Shown: positions 3,689 through 24,952 of the stretch, in pieces
Position numbering within the stretch: the first letter of the stretch is position 1
How the letters are laid out: the number at the start of each line of letters is the position of its first letter
From: Pseudoalteromonas tetraodonis
Lineage (GTDB): Bacteria > Pseudomonadota > Gammaproteobacteria > Enterobacterales > Alteromonadaceae
Length of the DNA: 32,000 nucleotides
Direction of reading: 5' to 3'
Assembly: GCF_002310835.1 (NCBI RefSeq)
Contig: NZ_CP011041.1
Location: forward strand, 2,010,001 to 2,042,000
The notes under the pieces: generated by a model
What the model was told of the DNA's origin: nothing
The model's input: only the letters and a program-made list of their open reading frames with translations
Databases searched by the model: none
Program-made: the position numbers and the translations under genes

Positions 3689-4693
3689 TTAATCTTCTAG
3701 TAGATAAGCAACTTTGTATTTCAAAGTTTTCAGTGAATCTTCAGTAAAGAGCAACATTAAATCACAACTAATATCATGATTTTCAATACCGTAACTTATT
3801 TCTATGGCTAGAGTCCGTTGCCAGCGCGACTTATTCGACTGAACAAGTTCAGAAACGTCCCGATGCTGCCCCAAAACTATTGGATGCCCTTGGCTAAAGG
3901 TCATGTCGAGCTGTTTTGACAAGCCGGTTAAAATAGCGCCAATTAAAATGTTACTTACATCCATTAGCAACTCTAACTCAACCTTGTCGTTTAGTTCACC
4001 TTCGTAATTCATCAGTGAGGCTATTTCTTTAAAACTAGAGTCATTTAAAAGTAATAATGCCTCGCCAGATACCCCGCCACCTATAAAGCCTTGGCAAATA
4101 CCCGATGTAGTATCATTGGTATCAACAGAGCTTAACGCCATGTTGAGCTCACTGACTTCTAAAACATTAACATTAGGAATGGGTAACTTAACAAATACAT
4201 TAAGCAGTCTTGCAAGTAAATCTCCCGCTTGACCCATGGCAACATTAGTCAGCTCTTGATATATATCACGAACATCAGGGTCAACTTGTTCACCTAACGA
4301 GTGAGACATGCGTTCACGCAGTGCTCTATCTCTAATACCATGATGTTCAATAATGGCAGCAAGCTTTTCGGGGGAACACGGTTTTTGAATAAAATCTATG
4401 GCGCCAAGCTCAAGCACACGTTGATGCGCACTCGGTTGAATATCGCCTGATACCACAACAGTGAGAACGTCGAGTCCTTGCTCTTTCATTGCAGCAAGCA
4501 CGCCATAGCCGTCCATTTCTGGCATATTTAAATCAAGGAAAAGAATTTCAGGCTGGGCTTTAGTTATTTGTTTTATGCAGTCTACACCGTCACATGCAAA
4601 TTCAACTTTAATATCCCAATCATCGGGTAAAGAGCGAGCTAATTGACGTCTAGCTAGTTTTGAATCATCACAAATTAAAACCGATGTTGACAT
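3689..4693 (-). CDS. Response regulator: CheY-like receiver fused to a CheC/CheX-like phosphatase-type domain
   Basis: 334-aa ORF. REC signature residues are DD9-10, D54 in LFLDLNMP, S82 and K104. The C-terminal half contains D-IYQ-E-LT-N-x22-P, which matches the CheC-family D/S-x3-E-x2-N-x22-P motif. A second, degenerate copy is E-LLM-D-VS-N-x22-P. Confidence 0.8.
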   Translation of the reverse strand: MSTSVLICDDSKLARRQLARSLPDDWDIKVEFACDGVDCIKQITKAQPEILFLDLNMPEMDGYGVLAAMKEQGLDVLTVVVSGDIQPSAHQRVLELGAIDFIQKPCSPEKLAAIIEHHGIRDRALRERMSHSLGEQVDPDVRDIYQELTNVAMGQAGDLLARLLNVFVKLPIPNVNVLEVSELNMALSSVDTNDTTSGICQGFIGGGVSGEALLLLNDSSFKEIASLMNYEGELNDKVELELLMDVSNILIGAILTGLSKQLDMTFSQGHPIVLGQHRDVSELVQSNKSRWQRTLAIEISYGIENHDISCDLMLLFTEDSLKTLKYKVAYLLED

Positions 4694-13435: not shown

Positions 13436-13473
13436 ATAAAAAAATATAAGGCTGATGAAAACAACAGCCTTAT
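13436..13473 (-). terminator. Intrinsic terminator ending the MNIO operon
   Basis: Minus strand reads ATAAGGCTG-ttgttttcat-CAGCCTTAT followed by ATTTTTTTAT. The stem is 9 bp. It starts 16 nt after the stop of the 40-aa ORF. Confidence 0.85.
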
Positions 13474-13488
13474 GAAATAAAGCAAAAA

Positions 13489-13611
13489 TTACGTCAAGCT
13501 GGTGATCCAACCTAAAATAGCATTTAAACACCCTATTCCAGCAAACACGGCTAAAAATGCAAAAAAGTAAGCCGCATTAAACGGGTCTTTAAACTCTTTA
13601 TCATCTGACAT
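13489..13611 (-). CDS. Unannotated 40-aa single-TM small protein, last gene of the MNIO operon
   Basis: Hand translation gives MSDDKEFKDPFNAAYFFAFLAVFAGIGCLNAILGWITSLT*. This is an acidic N-terminus followed by roughly 25 hydrophobic residues. A weak AAGG lies about 10 nt upstream. It sits 72 nt downstream of the DUF2063 gene and directly before the operon terminator. It falls below the ORF-track length cutoff. Confidence 0.4.
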   Translation of the reverse strand: MSDDKEFKDPFNAAYFFAFLAVFAGIGCLNAILGWITSLT

Positions 13612-13683
13612 CGGTACAACCTTTTATTAAGCACAACAAATAAAGGCGTTATAATAGACGATGTGAAATAATCTATAAAGAGC

Positions 13684-14436
13684 TTAATCTTGATTTTTTG
13701 TCACTATAATTTGACGCTGTGCCATAGCTGTTAAGGTACTCAGTGCCCCTTGAGTTATTTGCTCAAGGCTAAATTGAGGTGCATTTTCACTGACTTGCTG
13801 GCAAACATGCGCAAATGTGCTTCCTGCGTTATTGTCAATAATAGACAAAAGCATGGCGGTCATCGCATTAGTTGCTAAAAATTGTACTTCATCGTCTTTA
13901 TCTCTGTACACCACAAAATAATGTGGCTGCTCAGAGGGCTGTTGCGGTTGAAACGCTTCGCTAATATGTTGTACGGGGAATTCATAGCTTAAGTTACGTG
14001 CCGTTTTAGATAAATATAAAGGGCTTTGGGTTAATTGATTCGTTACCAGTTCGCTCTCATCCAAGTCAGCCTGAGTTACCGATACATCAAGCTCAATCCA
14101 TTCATAATGCGCCAGCGCTAGCATAAACACAGGGTCGCACTCTTTGGGCACATAACTTGTCATTAAATACGTTATAAACTCTTCAGCAATATCTAAAAAG
14201 TAAGGCGACTGACAATCATGTTCACTAAAAAATTCACGAACACGTAACTGCCATTGTTGCTCAGTGTAAAGTGTTTTTAATACCGGAAATGCTGATGAAA
14301 CAAACCCATTGATGTTATTAAAAAAAAGCTCCCGATAAATAGCCATACGTCTGTCTTCAACATCTGCTGGGCAAGGGTTCGTTTTGGGCTGGCGAATATG
14401 AGCCATAAACTCATTTTGAATATCGATAAAACTCAT
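13684..14436 (-). CDS. DUF2063-family protein (partner/substrate-recruiting subunit of MNIO enzymes; HvfC/BufC-like)
   Basis: 250 aa. The N-terminal pattern IQNEFMAHIRQP…RRMAIYRELFFNNINGFVSSAFPVL is typical of DUF2063. It lies 54 nt downstream of a DUF692 gene, which is the canonical pairing. Confidence 0.8.
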   Translation of the reverse strand: MSFIDIQNEFMAHIRQPKTNPCPADVEDRRMAIYRELFFNNINGFVSSAFPVLKTLYTEQQWQLRVREFFSEHDCQSPYFLDIAEEFITYLMTSYVPKECDPVFMLALAHYEWIELDVSVTQADLDESELVTNQLTQSPLYLSKTARNLSYEFPVQHISEAFQPQQPSEQPHYFVVYRDKDDEVQFLATNAMTAMLLSIIDNNAGSTFAHVCQQVSENAPQFSLEQITQGALSTLTAMAQRQIIVTKNQD

Positions 14437-14490
14437 AGTTAATACTCTTTTAAAACCATGCTGTTATTATTACAAGCTGCATAGGACTGT

Positions 14491-15348
14491 TTAAGCACTT
14501 TGCTCAGTGGATAACCGCTGCAGGTGCTTTGCTTGTAATTGATGAATTATATCCAGCTCTTTGGTTAACACGTTAATAGGTGGAATATTAAAGTCCCGCT
14601 CTAACAGCGTCGGAAATACACCATGTGTTTCATAAGCGCTATCGAGCAACTGCCATACGGGATCAATAACATCGGCGCCATGAGTATCTATAATCAAGTC
14701 CTCGGCTTCGTTGTAATGCCCTGCAACATGGGCATAAGCAATTCGGTTAGTTGGCAATGCAGCTAAAAAGGCATGTGCATCGTAGCCATGATTAACTGAA
14801 TTAACATAAATATTATTTACATCTAGTAGTAACTGGCAATCAGCCTGTTCTAAAATAGCGTTTGTAAATTCAAGCTCAGTTAACTGTTGTCCAGGCGCGC
14901 CATAATAAGACACATTTTCCAGCGCAAGTGGGCGTTCTAAAATATCTTGTACCTGTTTAACCCGAGAAACAACATGGTTAACCGCCTCCTCAGTGAAAGG
15001 GATCGGCATTAAGTCATACATGTGTCCTTTTCCTGAACAATAACTTAAATGCTCGCTGTATACTTTAATATTATGAGTATCAAAAAACGGTTTTAACGAC
15101 TTTACAAATTCAAGGTCTAATGGCTCAGGCGAGCCAATGGAAAGTGACAAACCATGGCAAACAAAATGATTAGTATTGGTTAACTGTTTGAACTGCTTTT
15201 CAAAGCGTCCACCTAACTTTAACCAGTTTTCTGGGGCCACTTCCATAAACTCAATTTGTTTTGGTACAGCACCGTCTAGCTCATCTAGCATTTCCCTGCG
15301 TAGGCCTAAGCCAACCATGCCAAAGTTAGGCGTTTGAATGTGAGCCAT
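14491..15348 (-). CDS. DUF692 / MNIO (multinuclear non-haem iron oxidase; MbnB/BufB/HvfB-like)
   Basis: 285 aa with family signature blocks in the usual order: VGLGLRRE, FMEVAPENW, CHGLSLSIG, YSEHLSY, ALENVSYY, LLLDVNNIYVN, AHVAGH, IIDTHG, LLERD. The His/Glu/Asp/Asn residues are consistent with the iron ligands of this TIM-barrel family. Confidence 0.9.
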   Translation of the reverse strand: MAHIQTPNFGMVGLGLRREMLDELDGAVPKQIEFMEVAPENWLKLGGRFEKQFKQLTNTNHFVCHGLSLSIGSPEPLDLEFVKSLKPFFDTHNIKVYSEHLSYCSGKGHMYDLMPIPFTEEAVNHVVSRVKQVQDILERPLALENVSYYGAPGQQLTELEFTNAILEQADCQLLLDVNNIYVNSVNHGYDAHAFLAALPTNRIAYAHVAGHYNEAEDLIIDTHGADVIDPVWQLLDSAYETHGVFPTLLERDFNIPPINVLTKELDIIHQLQAKHLQRLSTEQSA

Positions 15349-15363
15349 AATAAAACCTCATAT

Positions 15364-15389
15364 TAAATAAAAAGGGCCTAATAGGCCCT
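15364..15389 (-). terminator. Intrinsic terminator/attenuator between the precursor gene and the MNIO gene
   Basis: Minus strand reads AGGGCCT-att-AGGCCCT followed by TTTTATTTAATA. It starts 27 nt after the precursor stop and ends 15 nt before the MNIO ATG. Confidence 0.75.
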
Positions 15390-15416
15390 ATAGCTTAACG
15401 TATTTAAAAGAAAAGT

Positions 15417-15884
15417 TTAGTGACCACCGCATTTACCTTCGCCACATTTACCTTCTTTTTTGGTTTTAGCTTCACCGCATTTACCTTCGCCACACTTGCC
15501 TTCTTTTTTGGCCTTAGCTTCACCGCATTTACCTTCGCCGCACTTGCCTTCTTTTTTGGCTTTAGCTTCACCGCATTTACCTTCGCCGCACTTACCTTCT
15601 TTTTTGGCCTTAGCTTCACCGCATTTGCCTTCGCCGCACTTACCTTCTTTTTTGGCCTTCGCTTCGCCGCATTTACCTTCGCCGCACTTTCCTTCTTTTT
15701 TGGTTTTAGCTTCACCGCATTTACCTTCGCCGCACTTGCCTTCACCTGCGTCTAACTGGTAACCAGCAACCATTTGCTGAAATTCAAATGGGTTAGCTTG
15801 TACATCTGCACTGGCCATACTTGCACTACCAACAACCACTGCGCCGAGTGTTAATGCAATTGAATTTTTCTTTATTGTATTCAT
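15417..15884 (-). CDS. Secreted tandem-repeat cysteine protein (14 x GKCGE): predicted MNIO substrate/precursor (HvfA-like)
   Basis: 155 aa. AGAAGG Shine-Dalgarno 9 nt upstream of the ATG. Sec signal MNTIKKNSIALTLGAVVVGSASMASA|DV, then a unique segment NPFEFQQMVAGYQLDA, then (EGKCGEGKCGEAK[A/T]KK)x6 + EGKCGEGKCGGH. Differences between repeat units are almost all synonymous in this frame only. Confidence 0.85.
   Translation of the reverse strand: MNTIKKNSIALTLGAVVVGSASMASADVQANPFEFQQMVAGYQLDAGEGKCGEGKCGEAKTKKEGKCGEGKCGEAKAKKEGKCGEGKCGEAKAKKEGKCGEGKCGEAKAKKEGKCGEGKCGEAKAKKEGKCGEGKCGEAKTKKEGKCGEGKCGGH
15426..15745 (-). repeat. 48-bp tandem repeat, 6 complete units plus a partial seventh, inside the precursor CDS
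   Basis: Unit boundaries on the plus strand are 15426, 15474, 15522, 15570, 15618, 15666 and 15714. The unit consensus is ACCGCATTTACCTTCGCCGCACTTRCCTTCTTTTTTGGYYTTAGCTTC. No stop codons occur in 4 of the 6 frames. Confidence 0.95.
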
Positions 15885-15915
15885 TTTTTATTACCTTCTA
15901 AACTTGTTGAACATC

Positions 15916-15944
15916 ATTATACAAGTAGACCTGCATAAAACTAA
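15916..15944 (-). promoter_or_regulatory. Candidate sigma-70 promoter of the precursor/MNIO operon
   Basis: Minus strand has a perfect TATAAT (15921-15916) and a weak -35 TTAGTT (15944-15939) with a 17-nt spacer. It lies about 30 nt upstream of the precursor ATG. The dyad ACTTGT-N13-ACAAGT (15902-15926) overlaps the -10. Confidence 0.4.
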
Positions 15945-16072
15945 AAACTTTCACATTATCTATTTTTTCAAAAATAACTTAGTAAACTAACTATGAACCC
16001 TAATAAGCGTTTTATCAATTTATGATTTACAGGTAAACTGGCGCTCTTTTTCAGTAATAAATTAATCACACT

Positions 16073-17453: not shown

Positions 17454-18497
17454 TTAATTAAGTAGTTGTGGAGCAAAACTAAACGCTTGCCCTGGATAAA
17501 AAAGAATATCTTCAACTAATAAAGTCGCTTCCTCTTCACTTATGTTTAATCGTTTAAGTAAATTTAAGCGTGCTTGTGACAATGTCCAAGCGTGATAATG
17601 CACCCCTAGATCAGTCTCCATCATAGCCATATAGAGCAGTTCATCGGCTGGTTCTAATTGTGAAGCGTTAGCCCTCAGAGGTAATAGCGTATAACCCGTT
17701 AACCAGTCTAAACCCGCTATTTTCGAATCAGTTAAAAGTAATGTGGTAAGCTGTGAGGCATTTGAGGCTTCTACCGTTGTTTGCTGTTTTTGACTCTGCA
17801 TTGATTTGAATTTGCTATCAATACGACTTAGCCACTCAAGCGGTGAGAGCACAGCATTTGCAAAATAATTTAATTTACTTTGATACCACTGACTGCCATT
17901 AGCAAGGCCTGATAAACCAATGCTGCCTCTTGGCTTATAGTGCGCCAAATAATTGTTTAACTCACTCAACGCTGCATTAAGTTCAACCGGTGTGTTAGTG
18001 CGATTTATGGCTTGTTGCACGTACTTTTTTAAATAACTATGTTCAACTTTATTTAGCTTTAAATTACTTTGCTCGGCAGCTTCTAGCTGAGATTTTACAA
18101 ACCTTAACCATTGCTCAATATTTTTATACTGGGCATCATTTTTCGCCATAGTGAGCATATTAGCCAAAACATTTGTTTGTACAGGCCATGCAAAATAGCG
18201 CTCTGGGAATCGCTCAGCAATAACTAAATAATTAACCTGATTGGTTTGCTCTGCTGATAACTGCATTTGCATTAGCTGATGATAAATAGCGTGGCGACGC
18301 TTTAAATAATCATCTGTAAAAGGGAGCTGCTCATTACTGAGCTGTGTAACCTGTGAATTCGGTTGCGCACTTAAAGCCGTATTAAGTGATATTAACGCGC
18401 TTTGCGCTTCTTCATAAGATGAAAATATATCTGTAGGCTTAGAGCAAGACGTTAACAGCAAACAAAATAGCAGTGAAATAATAGGCGTTTTTTTCAT
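17454..18497 (-). CDS. Hypothetical lipoprotein (helical; possibly a DUF885-like fragment)
   Basis: 347 aa with signal peptide and lipobox MKKTPIISLLFCLLLTS|C. I cannot recognise a confident family. The C-terminal …YPGQAFSF… is reminiscent of DUF885. Confidence 0.6.
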   Translation of the reverse strand: MKKTPIISLLFCLLLTSCSKPTDIFSSYEEAQSALISLNTALSAQPNSQVTQLSNEQLPFTDDYLKRRHAIYHQLMQMQLSAEQTNQVNYLVIAERFPERYFAWPVQTNVLANMLTMAKNDAQYKNIEQWLRFVKSQLEAAEQSNLKLNKVEHSYLKKYVQQAINRTNTPVELNAALSELNNYLAHYKPRGSIGLSGLANGSQWYQSKLNYFANAVLSPLEWLSRIDSKFKSMQSQKQQTTVEASNASQLTTLLLTDSKIAGLDWLTGYTLLPLRANASQLEPADELLYMAMMETDLGVHYHAWTLSQARLNLLKRLNISEEEATLLVEDILFYPGQAFSFAPQLLN

Positions 18498-18508
18498 GTC
18501 AATTCCAA

Positions 18509-18535
18509 TAAAAAAAGCCCCAATGGGGCTTTTTA
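18509..18535 (-). terminator. Intrinsic terminator downstream of the TonB2-type operon
   Basis: AAAAAAAGCCCC-aat-GGGGCTTTTT, 24 nt after the stop of the TPR gene. Confidence 0.85.
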
Positions 18536-18558
18536 AAAATACTAGAGTACATTAAATA

Positions 18559-19818
18559 CTAAATTTTAACACCGTTGCGAGCGGCTTTATCTTTAATATA
18601 TGTAGCCCAACCTTTAGCAAACCTACGTGTGCTTGGGTCGTCCATGGCTTTAGTAATAGCAGCATAAGCTTGCTTATACTTACCTTGGTAGTAAAACGCT
18701 TCAGCTAAATCTGAATAAATAGTGCCTTTTTTATCAGAGCCAAGCTCTAATGCTTTGTTCAAACGAACAACAGCAGCGCTGAATTTTTCAGATTGTAAAA
18801 GTAATGAACCTGCTTTGCGGTAGAGCTCAGCGTCGTCATCAAATTTAGCAGCTTCTTCGTAATACTTAGCAGCTTTCTCTATATCTTTCGAACGATGGTA
18901 GTTACTAGCAATCGCGCTAATATTTTGCTTAGTGCGTTTTACTTTCTCTTCTTTAACAGCCTTTTCAAGCGTTACTGCTGCTTTGTAAGGAATTTCGTTT
19001 AAAGAATAAAAGTTAGCCAGTACTTTGTATTCAACTTCGTTTTCGAAGTAACCATTCTTGTATGCAACTTCCATAGTTGCTAGACCTTTTTGGTAGTCTT
19101 CGGTTTGTAAATAATACTTACCTAAACCTACCCAAGACTTTTTGTCTTCAGGCCATACACGAACAATTTCTTCTGCAACTTTAACCATATCTTGATATTG
19201 CTTTTTCTCAAAATAGGCAGCTAATTTAAGTTGATAAGGAGCTTTATTTGGCTCTTCAGCTAACTTAATTGCTTTATTTGCCGGTTCAAGAACCTGATCA
19301 AATTGTTTAAGCTCATAGCTTGCTTGCGCAATACGAGTGTAAACTTTCGGGTCCTCTTCACCTGTGAAGTCCATCCAATCAGAATATGCTTGCTTGGCAG
19401 CACTGTATTGTTCAGTACCCGCATACATATCGCCCAAAGTTTTTAAACCTTGAGCCTGATCAGCAAAGTTCAATACATCCGGTGCAATCGCTGCTTTCAT
19501 ATACTTAATTGCAACTTTGTATTGCTCTTTTTGAGCGTACATGCTGCCTAAGTAACGATTAACAGTTGCTTTATCAAAGTCATTAGACGGATCTAACTCT
19601 TTCAATAACGCTATTGCACCATCAACATCATCTTCGTTATACAAATCAAACGCTTTAATTACTTTTTTACCAGTACGTTCGCCCATGATTTTAGTTTTTG
19701 CTTTCTTACGCTCTTCAATTTTCGCGTAATCTGGCGCCGCTAAAACAGGTGCAGTTAATGATGCACCTGACACAGACATAAGAATTGCAAGTGCAGTTAC
19801 TTTAGAAAAATTTCTCAT
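18559..19818 (-). CDS. Periplasmic TPR-repeat protein (TtpD-like, TonB2 system)
   Basis: 419 aa with a signal peptide (…LTAPVLAA|PD). Repeated TPR-like A-x-Y/F helices run throughout. It is the last gene of the TonB2-type cluster. Confidence 0.75.
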   Translation of the reverse strand: MRNFSKVTALAILMSVSGASLTAPVLAAPDYAKIEERKKAKTKIMGERTGKKVIKAFDLYNEDDVDGAIALLKELDPSNDFDKATVNRYLGSMYAQKEQYKVAIKYMKAAIAPDVLNFADQAQGLKTLGDMYAGTEQYSAAKQAYSDWMDFTGEEDPKVYTRIAQASYELKQFDQVLEPANKAIKLAEEPNKAPYQLKLAAYFEKKQYQDMVKVAEEIVRVWPEDKKSWVGLGKYYLQTEDYQKGLATMEVAYKNGYFENEVEYKVLANFYSLNEIPYKAAVTLEKAVKEEKVKRTKQNISAIASNYHRSKDIEKAAKYYEEAAKFDDDAELYRKAGSLLLQSEKFSAAVVRLNKALELGSDKKGTIYSDLAEAFYYQGKYKQAYAAITKAMDDPSTRRFAKGWATYIKDKAARNGVKI

Positions 19819-19829
19819 TACTCGCCTCC

Positions 19830-20447
19830 TTAGTTGCCTTGGTTAAGTTTAAAGTCTAGTTGAACTTGTAAACCAACTTGCTTTTGTGGTTTCCCGTCAA
19901 TGATCTTAGGACGGTATTTCCACTTACGCAATGCACGTTTAGCTTCACGGTCAAAGATACGTTTTGGATCTGCGTCGATAACATCAACGTCAATCACGCC
20001 ACCTAACTCATCAATTGTGAACGAAAGTTGAACCCAACCTTCTTTACCATCACGTGCTGCTTGTGTTGGATATTTTGGTTCAATACGAACGATAGGTGTC
20101 GCATCACCATCTCGTCCAAATGCACCTGGACCACTTAGTCCACCGGCCGTGCTTCCCACATCGATACTTGGCATATTAAATGACAAGCCACCAGTATTTG
20201 GGTTGCTATTTTCCGGCTGTGGCGGCTGCGGTTTAGGCGGCTGCTTTGGCGGTGGCGGAGGCGGAGGCGGTACACGCTTCCTCTCCTGCACCTTAGATTC
20301 AGGCGGATTCGTCATAATTTCGACTATGATCTGCTCTTTTTGTTCCGTATTACGGTCAGCCCCACCAGAGATGAGGTATGCCATGAAGTAGAACAAGCCG
20401 AAAGTAACTGCCCCACCTGCAATCAGTGAAAACAGAAAACGAATCAT
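19830..20447 (-). CDS. tonB: Energy transducer TonB
   Basis: 205 aa with an N-terminal TM anchor, a Pro-rich spacer PPPPPPPPKQPPKPQPPQPE and a C-terminal TonB domain (…PKYPTQAARDGKEGWVQLSFTIDELGGV…). Its ATG overlaps the exbD stop by 1 nt. Confidence 0.9.
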   Translation of the reverse strand: MIRFLFSLIAGGAVTFGLFYFMAYLISGGADRNTEQKEQIIVEIMTNPPESKVQERKRVPPPPPPPPKQPPKPQPPQPENSNPNTGGLSFNMPSIDVGSTAGGLSGPGAFGRDGDATPIVRIEPKYPTQAARDGKEGWVQLSFTIDELGGVIDVDVIDADPKRIFDREAKRALRKWKYRPKIIDGKPQKQVGLQVQLDFKLNQGN

Positions 20448-20851
20448 TACTGATCTCCAGCTATTGAAATTCTCAGGTTATCACCCGTCGCTTTAATCTG
20501 GTCCATCACTTTAACCACTGTGCCGTGTTTTGCTTCTTTATCAGCTTGCAAAATTACAACATCAGTAGGTTGTTCTGCTAATAAACTTTCGATTTTTGCT
20601 GAAACACGTTCAACATCAACCTGCTGTTTATCAATCCAGATTGCACCGTCACTGCGAATTGCAATAAAAATGTTAGCATTTTTTTGCTTCGTAGCTTGGG
20701 CAGCTTTTGGTTTATTGACCTCGATACCAGCCTCTTTAACGAACGATGTAGTTACGATAAAGAAAATAAGCATGATAAATACGATGTCAAGCATTGGCGT
20801 CATATCTACCGCTGCTTCTTCTTCTTCACGAAAACGTTGTTTACGTGCCAT
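20447..20851 (-). CDS. exbD: Biopolymer transporter ExbD
   Basis: 134 aa. …VDMTPMLDIVFIMLIFFIVT… is the typical ExbD/TolR TM region carrying the conserved Asp. Confidence 0.9.
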   Translation of the reverse strand: MARKQRFREEEEAAVDMTPMLDIVFIMLIFFIVTTSFVKEAGIEVNKPKAAQATKQKNANIFIAIRSDGAIWIDKQQVDVERVSAKIESLLAEQPTDVVILQADKEAKHGTVVKVMDQIKATGDNLRISIAGDQ

Positions 20852-20865
20852 ATTTAATTCTCTCT

Positions 20866-21390
20866 CTAGTGATGAGGCATACTATCTACAAGCTTGGCTT
20901 TCACCATTCTCGCTCTTGCCTCAAGGCGTGAGCTAAAGAATACCCCAGATAGTGCCGCAACCATTCCAGCCATTGTTGGGATTGTTGCCATTGATATGCC
21001 TGATGCCATTAAACGTGCATTACCTGTACCTTGGGTTGCCATGGTTTCAAAAACCGCGATCATACCCGTAACAGTACCAAGTAAGCCTATTAAAGGACAT
21101 ATAGCTACTAATGTTTTAATCAACAACATACGCTGATCTAATTTTTCAGACGCTTCAGAAATCCATGCTTCACGGATTCTGTGTGCGTACCAAGACGTAG
21201 TGTCTTGGCGGGCATCCCACTTAGCTACAATTTCCTTCGTTAAAAGAGGAAACTCAGCAAGTAAGAACCAATAGCGCTCAATCATTAAAACCCACATAAG
21301 AAAGAGTGCTATCGCGACCACGTATAAAACCTGGCCGCCTGTGCCAACAAAATCCCTGATAGATTCCCAGATCTCCATCAGGACTAGCAT
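20866..21390 (-). CDS. exbB: MotA/TolQ/ExbB proton-channel protein (ExbB)
   Basis: 174 aa with three TM segments and the conserved block …LIGLLGTVTGMI..F… . Its ATG overlaps the upstream stop (TAATG). Confidence 0.88.
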   Translation of the reverse strand: MLVLMEIWESIRDFVGTGGQVLYVVAIALFLMWVLMIERYWFLLAEFPLLTKEIVAKWDARQDTTSWYAHRIREAWISEASEKLDQRMLLIKTLVAICPLIGLLGTVTGMIAVFETMATQGTGNARLMASGISMATIPTMAGMVAALSGVFFSSRLEARARMVKAKLVDSMPHH

Positions 21391-22754
21391 TAGGCTTTCT
21401 CCTTCTCCGCGTGAGTCGCGATGATACCCGCGCTTTGCTCATCAAGGATATGTAGTACCGACTTACTACGACCTGCAACAATTGAATGAAGTAGGATAAG
21501 TGGTAGTGCTGCAATTAGACCTAGCGCTGTAGTTACAAGTGCTAGAGAGATGTTACCAGCCATGATCTTCGGATCGCCCGTACCGAACAATGTGATTGTT
21601 TGGAACGTTAGGATCATACCGATTACCGTACCTAGTAGACCTAGTAATGGTGCGATAGCAGCAAGGATCTTGATGATGTTAATACCCGCTTCGATGCGTG
21701 GCGTTTCACGTAGAATCGCTTCATCAAGTTTAAGCTCAAGGTTTTCAACATCTTGATTTTTGTTGTCAGAGTACACTTTAAGAATACGACCCAATGGGTT
21801 GTTTGTATTCGGTGTAGACAAGTTCTTAAGCTGAGCTTTGATCTTAGAAGTAGTAAGCGCTAAATCAACGAAACGTACTAAGAAGATTAAAAGACCTACA
21901 GCAAGCAATACGGTGATGATGTAACCAACTTCAGCACCTTGCTCGTAGTACTCCATAAGAGACTTCTTCTGCGTGTTGATACGTAAGATTGCACCACGTG
22001 TAGGATCCACGTATACGCCAGCGTAATTATCAGCTGAAGTACCTTCTAGATCAGAAATACCTTTTAAGATATAGCTGTCAGGTTGCTTACCTAGAGGCTG
22101 TATAGACTTAGTCTCTGGTGAGTAGATTAAGTAGCCATCGTCTGTAACTAAGTTGAAGTTACCGATACGTGTTACTTTTTTCATTGACGGGTTACCGTCA
22201 AGACCTGCAACTTCAGTTTCAAACGTTGAAACTTTAGCTGACTCAGTCATTTCTGTTTGAAGTGAAATCCAAAGTTCTTCTAACTCACGAACTGTTGGAA
22301 GTTCTTTAGCCGCAGCTAATGAACGAAGTACTTCAGCACGTCCTGGTTTTTCAGCACTTACTAAAGATGCTTCAATTGAACCAATCGCGTCAGCTGCTGC
22401 ACGACGAACAACACCAAACATTTCACCTAACGTACCTTGCGCGTTTTGAAGAGCTTGCTCTTTTTCCGCTAAAGTATTTTCGTTTTGTGCATATTCTTTG
22501 CTAAGACGATCACCACGTGCTTTTTCAGCAGCTAATTGGCTTTTCGCTTTGTTAAGTAACGCTTGCTTATCAGCACGATCTGATAAGAACTCTTGTTCAC
22601 GTTGCTTATTGATTTTCCCTTCAGAAATACGCTCTTGCTTTACTTGCTCAAGAATTTTATCTAAAGCATCAGTATTTGCATGTGCATTAAGCGCGGTACC
22701 GGCAGAAACAGACAGTACTGCTGCAACAGCAAAACCTTTAAATAGTTTCTTCAT
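21390..22754 (-). CDS. Large MotA/TolQ/ExbB-family protein with an N-terminal periplasmic coiled-coil domain (TtpC-like)
   Basis: 454 aa with a signal peptide and a long coiled-coil/periplasmic region. The C-terminal ExbB-like channel block reads …APLLGLLGTVIGMILTFQ… . Confidence 0.85.
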   Translation of the reverse strand: MKKLFKGFAVAAVLSVSAGTALNAHANTDALDKILEQVKQERISEGKINKQREQEFLSDRADKQALLNKAKSQLAAEKARGDRLSKEYAQNENTLAEKEQALQNAQGTLGEMFGVVRRAAADAIGSIEASLVSAEKPGRAEVLRSLAAAKELPTVRELEELWISLQTEMTESAKVSTFETEVAGLDGNPSMKKVTRIGNFNLVTDDGYLIYSPETKSIQPLGKQPDSYILKGISDLEGTSADNYAGVYVDPTRGAILRINTQKKSLMEYYEQGAEVGYIITVLLAVGLLIFLVRFVDLALTTSKIKAQLKNLSTPNTNNPLGRILKVYSDNKNQDVENLELKLDEAILRETPRIEAGINIIKILAAIAPLLGLLGTVIGMILTFQTITLFGTGDPKIMAGNISLALVTTALGLIAALPLILLHSIVAGRSKSVLHILDEQSAGIIATHAEKEKA

Positions 22755-22760
22755 TATTGA

Positions 22761-23540
22761 TTACTCCGCGCCAAAAATTGGTAGTTTAACAAGTTCTAGT
22801 GTGGCTTGCTTACGCGCCATACGGATCACTTCTTTAACAGGTTTTAGGTATTCTTCACCTAATTCTTTCCACTGTTTAGTGTTGTTATCCCACACCCAAG
22901 CGTGTTTTAGATCGAATGATTGCGCTACATAAGTGATACGACCTAAACGACCGATATCAACGTTAATGCTACGACCATCAACATCTAAAGTACCTTGAGA
23001 AGCAGTTACAGCTGAACTGTATGCTGTTTCAACAGTGTACGCTTCAAGTACCTGACGGAACTTCTCAGACGTTGTTACAGATGCAGATGCCATGATCTCA
23101 CGTAATCTTTCAACACGTCCAAGACGAGTTTCAAGGTTAAATGGAACGTCCGCTTTGATGAATTGCTCAAGCGTATCGATCATGCGATACATCAAAGGCA
23201 CAACGTTTTGTTTAGTGTTATCGATAGTCGCGATTTGACGATCGAACGATGCGATAGACGCATTTTGGTCAGCGACCAAACGTGCTACGTGATCGTTGTA
23301 CACTTTCATAAGTTCAGTCTCATCAACGATGCTACGGTACTCAGCGATTAGCTCCTGAGTTTGACCATATACATTGTCAATTTTAGTTTGAGACTTAACC
23401 GCAGCCTTTTGAATTGTTTGACCTGCTTTTTGCACGTCATTCAAAGGATCTGCAATCACATTGCTGCTTGCAAATGCAAAAGCGCCAACCAACGCAGTTG
23501 CTACAAGACTCTTTCTGATTTTAACAGACATAGTTCCCAA
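22761..23540 (-). CDS. DUF3450-like periplasmic coiled-coil protein (TtpB-like)
   Basis: 259 aa from the TTG start at 23540. ATG at 23531 (MSVKIRK…) is the more likely start. It has a signal peptide …AFAFASSNVIA|DP and is the first gene of the TonB2-type cluster. Confidence 0.75.
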   Translation of the reverse strand: MGTMSVKIRKSLVATALVGAFAFASSNVIADPLNDVQKAGQTIQKAAVKSQTKIDNVYGQTQELIAEYRSIVDETELMKVYNDHVARLVADQNASIASFDRQIATIDNTKQNVVPLMYRMIDTLEQFIKADVPFNLETRLGRVERLREIMASASVTTSEKFRQVLEAYTVETAYSSAVTASQGTLDVDGRSINVDIGRLGRITYVAQSFDLKHAWVWDNNTKQWKELGEEYLKPVKEVIRMARKQATLELVKLPIFGAE

Positions 23541-24360: not shown

Positions 24361-24386
24361 CGATGAACTTAGGTTCACATAATAAA

Positions 24387-24590
24387 TTATGCTACTTCTA
24401 CGTTCTCAGCTTCAGGGCCTTTTTGACCTTGCTTGATGCTGAAAGTCACTGCTTGACCTTCGCTAAGAGTGCGAAAACCAGAACCAGTGATTGCGCTGAA
24501 ATGTACAAACACGTCAGGACCATTTTCTTGTTCAATGAAACCAAAGCCTTTAGCTTCGTTGAAAAATTTTACTTTACCAGTAACCGACAT
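24387..24590 (-). CDS. Cold-shock protein, CspA family
   Basis: 67 aa with RNP1 KGFGFI and RNP2 VFVHF, and an AGGAAA Shine-Dalgarno. A long upstream untranslated region is typical of csp genes. Confidence 0.95.
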
Positions 24591-24952
24591 ACTAAATTTT
24601 CCTGTAAGTCAATAATTAAAATTCAGCCATATAATTATGGCAATATCCTCCCTGAGTCAATGCCCAAAAAACTGGAGGTGATAGTACAGGAAGAAGTAAT
24701 AACCAAACCGGTAACCTTAAACGCAGCACAATACCGTAATTCAATACGCAAAAACTCAAAGCCAATTAAGATTAACACATTAAAATTTTTTTAGCTCTAT
24801 TAATTAGGATTTATTTTTGAAGTTTCATTGTTTTACTAACGACGGTGTAACCTTTTAATTTTTATAGAAAATAACAAGCAAAATATTGTATTTTTTATAA
24901 ACAGATTACAATTGCTTTAAAATAGTTTTTATCAGTATGTTTTTTAGCCACT

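Follow-up and report, generated by a model that had tools for sequence, protein, structure and literature searches.

A 14-cysteine precursor and its predicted maturation proteins: an hvfABC-type gene cluster in Pseudoalteromonas tetraodonis

Background

What might a marine bacterium make from an exported protein in which fourteen cysteines recur within one regular motif, and which is encoded beside a putative cysteine-modifying oxidase? The question is raised by a 32,000-nucleotide stretch of DNA from Pseudoalteromonas tetraodonis (assembly GCF_002310835.1, contig NZ_CP011041.1, positions 2,010,001 to 2,042,000 of the forward strand; hereafter the window). Its minus strand carries four co-directional open reading frames (ORFs), in the order hvfA-hvfB-hvfC-micro-ORF, with a strong terminator at the end (Table 1). 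An earlier interpretation of the locus, made from the sequence alone, had placed the four ORFs exactly where we find them and had assigned them to an Hvf/bufferin-type cluster for a peptide made on the ribosome and modified after translation (RiPP), whose cysteines would be modified by an oxidative enzyme dependent on multinuclear non-heme iron (MNIO). That assignment is upheld by curated models matched above their cut-offs, by conserved iron ligands and by the literature (PMC11252979, PMC12452194, PMC12668002). What was observed directly are the identities of the genes, the motif content, the conservation of ligands, synteny and a hairpin that keeps its position; on this basis we conclude that the locus is very probably an hvfABC biosynthetic cluster of the core chromosome, predicted by a homology-based mechanism to convert cysteines into copper-binding heterocycles. 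The cluster is already known, as an ordinary, catalogued member of the class termed oxazolin, Buf_EGKCG or "captophorin".

The maturation proteins HvfB and HvfC

The naming of HvfA, HvfB and HvfC was decided by curated NCBIfam models, each with its own cut-off, and Pfam supplied the broader families. Profile hidden Markov model (HMM) searches returned the DUF692 and DUF2063 families that had been anticipated, with matches to PF05114, PF09836 and PF22106, and the DUF692 signature blocks quoted in the sequence-only reading are all present. HvfB matches PF05114 (MbnB_TglH_ChrH) with 351.7 bits (E = 3e-105) and NF003818 with 441.8 bits against a cut-off of 360. On rival models it falls short, with 266 bits against 310 for BufB (NF050167), 37.6 against 325 for MbnB (TIGR04159), and scores far under the cut-offs for ChrH and ApyH. 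Its nearest solved structure is that of a Histophilus somni HvfB homologue (PDB 3BWW, E = 2.5e-75).

The predicted iron ligands of HvfB are H65, H100, E144, D176, N179, H207, D221, H223 and E250. For the comparison with MbnB we used the ligand numbering of the MbnBC structure papers. In HMMER alignments all nine ligand columns are conserved relative to MbnB (7TCR, 7DZ9) and to 3BWW, and HvfB matches three iron-site sets, His/His/Glu, Asp/His/Glu and Asn/Asp/His. The site-3 residues N175, D242 and H244, which are essential in Haemophilus influenzae HvfB (bioRxiv 10.64898/2026.07.17.739211), have their equivalents in the protein encoded here.

HvfC combines a DUF2063 domain (PF09836, 93.8 bits, 7.6e-27) with an NGO1945 C-domain (PF22106, 91.6 bits, 4.3e-26), passes NF050145 with 304.1 bits against a cut-off of 142, and contains a RiPP recognition element. 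The nearest solved structure is Neisseria gonorrhoeae NGO1945 (PDB 3DEE, 1.9e-8). Public records under Pseudoalteromonas tetraodonis GFC are identical to HvfB (ATD03465.1), HvfC (ATD03464.1) and the micro-ORF product (ATD03463.1), and siblings that share 90% clusters with them carry the names "HvfB family MNIO-type RiPP peptide maturase" and "HvfC family RiPP maturation protein". The exact 155-residue HvfA sequence has no copy in the protein collection.

Table 1. Coordinates of the hvf genes, their predicted transcription signals and a neighbouring gene cluster, in positions of the window
Feature	Position	Strand	Description and basis
hvfA	15417-15884	-	155-residue precursor; ORF call, NCBIfam NF050137 and NF050188
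hvfB	14491-15348	-	285-residue MNIO (formerly DUF692); Pfam, NCBIfam, PDB match
hvfC	13684-14436	-	250-residue DUF2063/NGO1945-type partner; Pfam, NCBIfam, PDB match
micro-ORF	13489-13611	-	40-residue protein with one transmembrane helix; conservation across loci
Tandem DNA repeat in hvfA	15425-15743	-	48 nucleotides, encodes the 16-residue unit EGKCGEGKCGEAK(A/T)KK; Tandem Repeats Finder
TATAAT hexamer	15916-15921	-	31 nucleotides upstream of the hvfA ATG; sequence inspection
Promoter-like TTGATA-17-CATAGT	15990-16018	-	dusC-hvfA intergenic region; consensus scan
Hairpin AGGGCC-TAT-TAGGCCCT, then T-run TTTTTATTT	15363-15389	-	hvfA-hvfB spacer; terminator scan
Intrinsic terminator	13436-13473	-	9-bp stem with extension, T7 run; after the micro-ORF, before apt
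TonB2-type energy-transduction cluster	17454-23540	-	DUF3450, MotA/ExbB (454 residues), ExbB, ExbD, TonB, TPR protein, DUF885-like

The precursor HvfA

All 14 cysteines of HvfA lie within EGKCG motifs, which form seven EGKCGEGKCG double motifs and are interspersed with six EAK(A/T)KK spacers. A Sec-exported, cysteine-repeat precursor of 155 residues had been predicted, and the cysteine count and the NCBIfam HvfA models agree with it. The accompanying description of 14 GKCGE copies with AK(A/T)KK spacers is right as to the number of cysteine motifs and needs correction in detail: there are 13 GKCGE and one terminal GKCGG, and a spacer follows only each second motif. The repeat domain model NF050137 (KCGExKCG_twice) recognizes six stretches with a total of 147.1 bits against a cut-off of 19.5 (E = 7.4e-44), and the repeat is far beyond chance. 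The equivalog model NF050188 is also passed, with 95.9 bits against a cut-off of 95, and no match to DUF2282 was found in Pfam. At the DNA level the array has a period of 48, 6.6 copies, 93% matches and a score of 533 in Tandem Repeats Finder.

The N-terminus, read by inspection, has the organization of a Sec-type signal spanning approximately residues 1-30, with an MNTIKKN n-region, the h-region SIALTLGAVVVG and the c-region SASMASADVQA|NPF, and the xQA|NPF junction is kept in HvfA orthologues. Between the signal and the repeats lies the segment NPFEFQQMVAGYQLDA, in which NPFxFxxMxxGYQL is conserved. Three other ORFs of 100-113 residues overlap the repeat, one on the minus strand (15404-15745) and two on the plus strand (15420-15755, 15460-15762); they are frame artefacts of the periodic sequence that could be mis-called as genes.

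Repeat number among related loci

A scan with HvfB, limited to one genome per species, yielded 80 related loci, cited below by L numbers, as are further loci (L081-L090). The nearest are from Pseudoalteromonas (77-81% identity), followed by Shewanella, Rheinheimera, Paraglaciecola, Lacimicrobium, Ferrimonas and assorted Gammaproteobacteria. In 72 of the 80, hvfB is directly preceded by a KCG-repeat ORF. The remaining eight comprise one EGSCG variant, two contigs that end too early and five loci with no KCG-repeat ORF. The variant is that of Neiella marina (L049:4415-4852), where the precursor gene beside hvfB encodes EGSCG/EASCG motifs with 11 cysteines and serine replaces the lysine before cysteine; judged from its sequence, it represents naturally occurring variation at position 3 of the EGKCG motif. 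The five loci (L061, L063, L064, L074, L079) have hvfB-hvfC with no KCG-repeat ORF of at least 40 residues upstream and an nth-like gene in that place, and DoxX is present in three of those checked; these loci may rely on a very short precursor, on one of another type or on a precursor gene located elsewhere.

Fourteen cysteines had been regarded as an exceptional number, and here the comparison leads to the opposite view. The 61 complete precursors have between 2 and 24 KCG motifs each, with a median of 11 and a mode of 12, and seven of them have at least 14; fifteen Pseudoalteromonas precursors have 10-24. A value of 14 is therefore ordinary for the family, in which up to 58 cysteines are on record for a Pseudoalteromonas precursor (PMC12452194).

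Repeat number also differs at close range. Strains that are 95-97% identical in DNA to the window (L085-L088, hvfA at about 3760-4200) have 6, 10, 12 and 12 cysteines, that is, 3, 5, 6 and 6 double motifs as compared to 7, and their repeat unit has 17 residues (GDAKAKK) as compared to 16 (EAKAKK). This suggests a copy-number polymorphism of the hvfA repeat between close strains, with collapse of short reads as the alternative explanation. Contigs break inside the array in 11 of the 80 loci and two more (L057, L077) end just upstream of hvfB; the loci with contig ends are L002, L003, L011, L019, L021, L030, L035, L057, L060, L068, L073, L077 and L078. Since contigs break in the repeat, the differences may instead reflect assembly collapse. 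The tandem repeat routinely breaks draft assemblies, and hvfA is probably under-annotated as a result.

Synteny and age of the cluster

The arrangement dusC (divergent), hvfA-hvfB-hvfC-micro-ORF, (ybaN), apt-dnaX is seen in Pseudoalteromonas, Shewanella and Ferrimonas. The hvfABC-micro-ORF-apt side recurs in Rheinheimera, Paraglaciecola and Lacimicrobium, with no dusC match beside hvfA. The GC content across the locus is flat at 0.38-0.42, the same as that of the flanks.

These data bear on whether the cluster could be a mobile module of recent acquisition; it had been called insert-like in view of the unrelated housekeeping genes on either side. Vibrionaceae do possess the micro-ORF/ybaN/apt neighbourhood without hvfABC, so that an ancient gain or loss must have happened. 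Recent acquisition is nevertheless scarcely credible: the same gene order recurs in several genera, the identities of the hvf proteins track those of the products of the flanking genes, base composition does not set the locus apart from its surroundings, and an integrase, a transposase, a tRNA and flanking repeats are all absent from it. Because the synteny recurs across genera and the GC content is flat, the hvfABC module is, by these sequence criteria, an old resident and not an insert.

The small membrane protein downstream of hvfC

The product of the micro-ORF has an N-terminal FKDPFN, one transmembrane helix and an invariant tryptophan. Its family (38-44 residues, M..(D/E)..F-K-(D/E)-P-(F/Y)-N) is conserved in 57 of the 80 loci and extends to 271 database clusters, every one of them annotated as "hypothetical", and is matched by no Pfam or NCBIfam model. 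A resemblance to the "NGO_0222 family membrane protein" (NCBIfam, E = 0.093) was dismissed as chance, being found for 1 of 28 orthologues and covering transmembrane residues only. Members lie directly after hvfC within the range L001-L060 and at 5001-5132 in L081-L084, L089 and L090.

The sequence-only reading had counted this ORF as a component of the operon, and its position offers arguments in that direction. One may imagine that the protein is a true fourth hvf component in Alteromonadales that takes the place of DoxX/HvfX by serving, for instance, as a tether at the membrane or as a partner in export or copper handling. It follows hvfC directly and in the same direction in the 57 loci, with no terminator between the two genes and a strong one after the second; in L010 and L012 it remains by hvfC even though apt has been rearranged away; and loci with the micro-ORF are without DoxX, while the checked loci that are without it do have DoxX. 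DoxX follows hvfC in L022, L059, L064, L072 and L076, which are non-Alteromonadales relatives, and the complementary distribution is confounded by phylogeny. More telling is the context outside hvf loci. In Vibrio sp., V. harveyi and Grimontia celer, FK[DE]P[FY]N proteins with the transmembrane helix are encoded 15-46 nucleotides upstream of DUF454 (ybaN)-apt-dnaX-ybaB-recR, no hvf gene occurs within 5 kb, and the gene order in Shewanella is hvfC-micro-ORF-DUF454-apt. An independent gene would fit with the gaps of 66-258 nucleotides that follow hvfC and with a promoter-like site at 13679-13651.

Since Vibrio and Grimontia carry the family ahead of DUF454-apt with no hvf genes nearby, it is not hvf-specific, and on these contexts the view of the micro-ORF as a fourth hvf gene was rejected as the principal interpretation; a replacement of DoxX/HvfX appears improbable. 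The micro-ORF is a genuine, conserved gene, and on the simplest reading of the sequence data it does not belong to hvf but is an ancestral neighbour of ybaN/apt; in Alteromonadales hvfABC sits next to that ancestral micro-ORF/ybaN/apt neighbourhood. Co-option of the micro-protein by clusters that have no DoxX is, in our estimate, quite improbable. A broader conjecture, to which we attach equally little weight, is that the 48-51-nucleotide repeat of hvfA serves as a fast-evolving copy-number dial for copper buffering by strain and that the FKDPFN micro-protein has been recruited as a membrane partner in Alteromonadales devoid of DoxX/HvfX; its basis is that strains 3-5% diverged in DNA have 3, 5, 6, 6 and 7 double motifs.

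Predicted transcription signals

The start and end of the transcription unit had been assigned to a TATAAT promoter and a terminator with a 9-bp stem. The terminator (13473-13436) is well supported, with an RNA fold of -13.9 kcal/mol (z = -5.4) that none of 200 shuffled sequences equalled in stability. As to the promoter, the hexamer at 15921-15916 is present and perfect, but it is accompanied by no recognizable -35 element and failed a scan for two-hexamer promoters. When 10 intergenic regions were aligned, it was found in the window and in the closest strains L085 and L087 only, and in none of the other Pseudoalteromonas.

Another candidate lies further upstream, where a conserved block, AGTTTACCTGTAAATCA..ATTGATAAA (about 16039-16011), overlaps the TTGATA-17-CATAGT site and contains the dyad TTTAC-CT-GTAAA. 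The block of 29 bp (AGTTTACCTGTAAATCAtAaATTGATAAA, about 16011-16039) is nearly invariant in 10 Pseudoalteromonas dusC-hvfA spacers that diverge in the rest of their sequence. As far as such conservation can indicate, the block is a candidate promoter or operator of hvfA, and could instead serve the divergent dusC. The consensus sequences of Fur, CueR and similar regulators did not match the dyad, and an Rfam search of the whole window at gathering thresholds gave no match, hence no known riboswitch or small RNA upstream of hvfA.

A second terminator-like element, a hairpin with a T-run overlooked in the sequence-only reading, lies at 15389-15363, with the hairpin at 15389-15373. Its GC-rich stem of 7 bp stands directly 3' of the precursor gene. 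A hairpin and T-run occupy the same position in most Alteromonadales loci, with stem sequences that differ between loci; equivalents occur within L001-L055, in Pseudoalteromonas, Shewanella, Lacimicrobium, Rheinheimera and Ferrimonas. Conservation of position with differing stems supports an attenuator or partial terminator that raises the ratio of precursor to enzyme, and we infer that the hairpin probably acts in this manner, yielding more precursor mRNA than read-through mRNA for hvfBC.

Predicted chemistry and role of the product

A mechanism can be derived by homology to the characterized HvfABC, FonABC and NgoABC systems, and it is from these that we infer the chemistry, the number of modified sites, export, copper binding and physiological role. 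The HvfB and HvfC proteins of nontypeable H. influenzae modify six of six cysteines in three AEGKCGEGKCG motifs, with a loss of 4 Da each, and oxazolin, the product of HvfABC, binds Cu(I) (PMC11252979). The active MNIO cofactor, a diiron cluster in a mixed-valent state, does not form unless HvfC is present. By analogy, HvfA would be synthesized in the cytoplasm as a protein that retains its Sec signal, and HvfC would bind HvfA and HvfB and switch the HvfB iron cluster to the mixed-valent Fe(II)/Fe(III) state in which it is active. HvfB would then use O2 for a four-electron oxidation (-4 Da) of each EGKCG cysteine to 5-thiooxazole, acting iteratively or processively on the seven double motifs, which offer at most 14 sites. 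Once modified, HvfA would be exported through Sec and then undergo cleavage, probably after VQA30, and the product would bind Cu(I), either periplasmically or extracellularly, with approximately one copper per pair of heterocycles (about 7 Cu). The substrate requirements of FonBC, namely two tandem motifs and a small residue (Gly or Ala) after the cysteine, with proline not tolerated (PMC12668002), are satisfied by all 14 motifs of HvfA, each of which has the form x-G-K-C-G, with lysine before and glycine after the cysteine, contains no proline and is paired into a double motif.

The nature of the heterocycle has been revised in the literature. The oxazolin modification was originally assigned by nuclear magnetic resonance (NMR) and mass spectrometry (MS) as oxazolone/thioamide (PMC11252979). 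Conversion of the cysteines to methanobactin-like oxazolone/thioamide pairs instead of 5-thiooxazoles would agree with that original NMR/MS assignment, and the names of the NCBIfam models still say "oxazolone/thioamide-modified". The original laboratory has, however, reassigned the HvfA modification to 5-thiooxazole (bioRxiv 10.64898/2026.06.05.730506; 10.64898/2026.07.17.739211). An independent group arrived at the same structure by alkylation-assisted heteronuclear multiple-bond correlation, describing fontiphorin (7 sites) and gonophorin and introducing the class name captophorins (PMC12668002). Taken together with the 37.6 bits that HvfB obtains on the MbnB model, where the cut-off is 325, this makes oxazolone/thioamide products very unlikely here, and 5-thiooxazoles are the predicted outcome. 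The products of the family have been characterized (oxazolin, fontiphorin and gonophorin, with 5-thiooxazoles and Cu(I) binding), and the novelty that had been attributed to the locus is not sustained.

The likeliest role of the product would be the sequestration or buffering of copper under metal or oxidative stress. Systems that make 5-thiooxazoles are induced by excess metal and stress, and their products aggregate with copper (PMC12668002; bufferins, PMC12452194). The same biosynthesis could in principle lead to a secreted, methanobactin-like chalkophore that acquires copper and is taken up in a TonB-dependent manner, rather than to a periplasmic sink. Copper scavenging is among the possibilities raised by Manley et al. 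(PMC11252979), and a TonB-ExbD-ExbB-ExbB-DUF3450 cluster (17454-23540) is located 1.5-7.5 kb away. That cluster is, however, general and widely conserved, and three unrelated genes separate it from hvfA; the locus has no adjacent gene for a TonB-dependent receptor, for MbnT/MbnE-like uptake or for an exporter; the Sec signal of the precursor delivers to the periplasm; and the pattern of induction and copper aggregation in related systems fits sequestration. We therefore regard copper acquisition as unlikely, and as a weaker alternative than a copper sink.

Several points weigh against the overall interpretation of the locus as a cluster for copper-binding heterocycles. What is said of modification, site number, export and metal specificity is extrapolated from proteins that are distant at the precursor level, and the HvfA equivalog model is cleared only marginally (95.9 against 95 bits). 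The DoxX-like HvfX of the H. influenzae operon and of non-Alteromonadales relatives is missing from the window: searching all 32 kb by tblastn with two HvfX-like DoxX proteins returned nothing significant (best E = 0.036), and no HvfX gene lies downstream of hvfC as it does in the canonical four-gene operon hvfA-B-C-X. If HvfX is needed for function, the system may behave differently here. The hvfA-hvfB hairpin is short (7 bp), and the fold of its 62-nucleotide spacer is not exceptional (z = -1.3). Lastly, the physiological role, detoxification as opposed to acquisition, is unsettled even in the model systems.

Relationship to known systems

The closest parallel is HvfABCX of H. influenzae, which has a Sec-signal precursor with (A)EGKCGEGKCG double motifs, an MNIO, a DUF2063 partner with a RiPP recognition element, and the same A-B-C order. 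HvfA has seven double motifs (14 cysteines) here as compared to three (6 cysteines) there, without the additional disulfide-forming N-terminal cysteine pair of the H. influenzae protein, and the window has no DoxX/HvfX gene. Relative to the close homologue 3BWW, HvfB is missing approximately 12-20 residues before the DTHG block. As the present host is a free-living marine bacterium, the role of a "virulence factor" is inapplicable. The FonABC system of Fontimonas thermophila and the NgoABC system of N. gonorrhoeae also have EGKCG repeats, an MNIO and a PME1/DUF2063 protein, and give Cu(I)-binding products with 5-thiooxazoles (PMC12668002). A loss of 4 Da per motif cysteine, a chromophore at about 302-305 nm and Cu(I) binding are on record for HvfA, FonA and NgoA only. 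FonA differs in its spacers and in its repeat number (7 sites).

The cluster belongs exactly to the Buf_EGKCG/oxazolin type 1 class of Leprevost et al. (2025; PMC12452194). These authors collected approximately 2,000 such precursors of 31-506 residues with a signal peptide, mostly from Pseudomonadota, built of a variable number of units of about 17 residues with two EGKCG each, the longest of which, with 58 cysteines, is from Pseudoalteromonas piscicida. The biosynthetic gene clusters contain the precursor, MNIO, DUF2063 and DoxX genes "in various combinations", DoxX being frequent and not obligatory (PMC12452194). The difference between a 16-residue unit (EAKAKK) here and one of 17 (GDAKAKK) in the closest strains is a trivial variation.

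Bufferins (BufA1/BufA2 with BufB/BufC, in Caulobacter, Bordetella and others) have in common with HvfABC a Sec-exported precursor matured by an MNIO and a DUF2063 protein. Their cysteines are converted to 5-thiooxazoles, they sequester copper in the periplasm, and the MNIOs fall in the same large sequence cluster. HvfA is, however, neither a DUF2282 nor a Buf_6/12Cys precursor, HvfB scores under the BufB cut-off, and the window has no sigma/anti-sigma (NrsF) or DoxX genes, which places the locus outside the bufferins proper. Methanobactin biosynthesis by MbnA/MbnB/MbnC shares the MNIO fold, the same set of iron ligands and the general conversion of cysteines of a ribosomal peptide to a copper-binding heterocycle. 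It differs in having MbnC in place of a DUF2063 partner, a leader peptide in place of a Sec signal, only 2 sites, an oxazolone/thioamide product, and dedicated genes for export and uptake; with HvfB as distant from MbnB as its score on TIGR04159 indicates (37.6 against 325 bits), our cluster falls outside MbnABC.

Other features of the window

The TonB2-type cluster lies 1.5 kb beyond dusC and is conserved beside the locus in the closest strains L085-L088. No YbaN gene was found elsewhere in the window. An ORF of 143 residues at 24363-24794 on the plus strand has no Pfam match at E <= 1e-5; it is surrounded by housekeeping and signalling genes that are well annotated (GGDEF/EAL, LysR, amidohydrolase).

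Significance

The locus adds one more orthologue to a RiPP class whose enzymology, 5-thiooxazole chemistry, copper binding, distribution and repeat variability have been published since 2024. The class and its repeat expansion in Pseudoalteromonas are likewise published, and curated HMMs of the NCBI name the cluster. Its value lies in providing a clean marine example, from a non-pathogen, of hvfABC that is DoxX-less and has 14 predicted sites. Modest leads are offered by the 40-residue membrane family linked to ybaN-apt, by the attenuator-like hairpin and by the repeat polymorphism at strain level, and the 14-site HvfA could suit the study of how processively an MNIO and its partner act along a long repeat protein.

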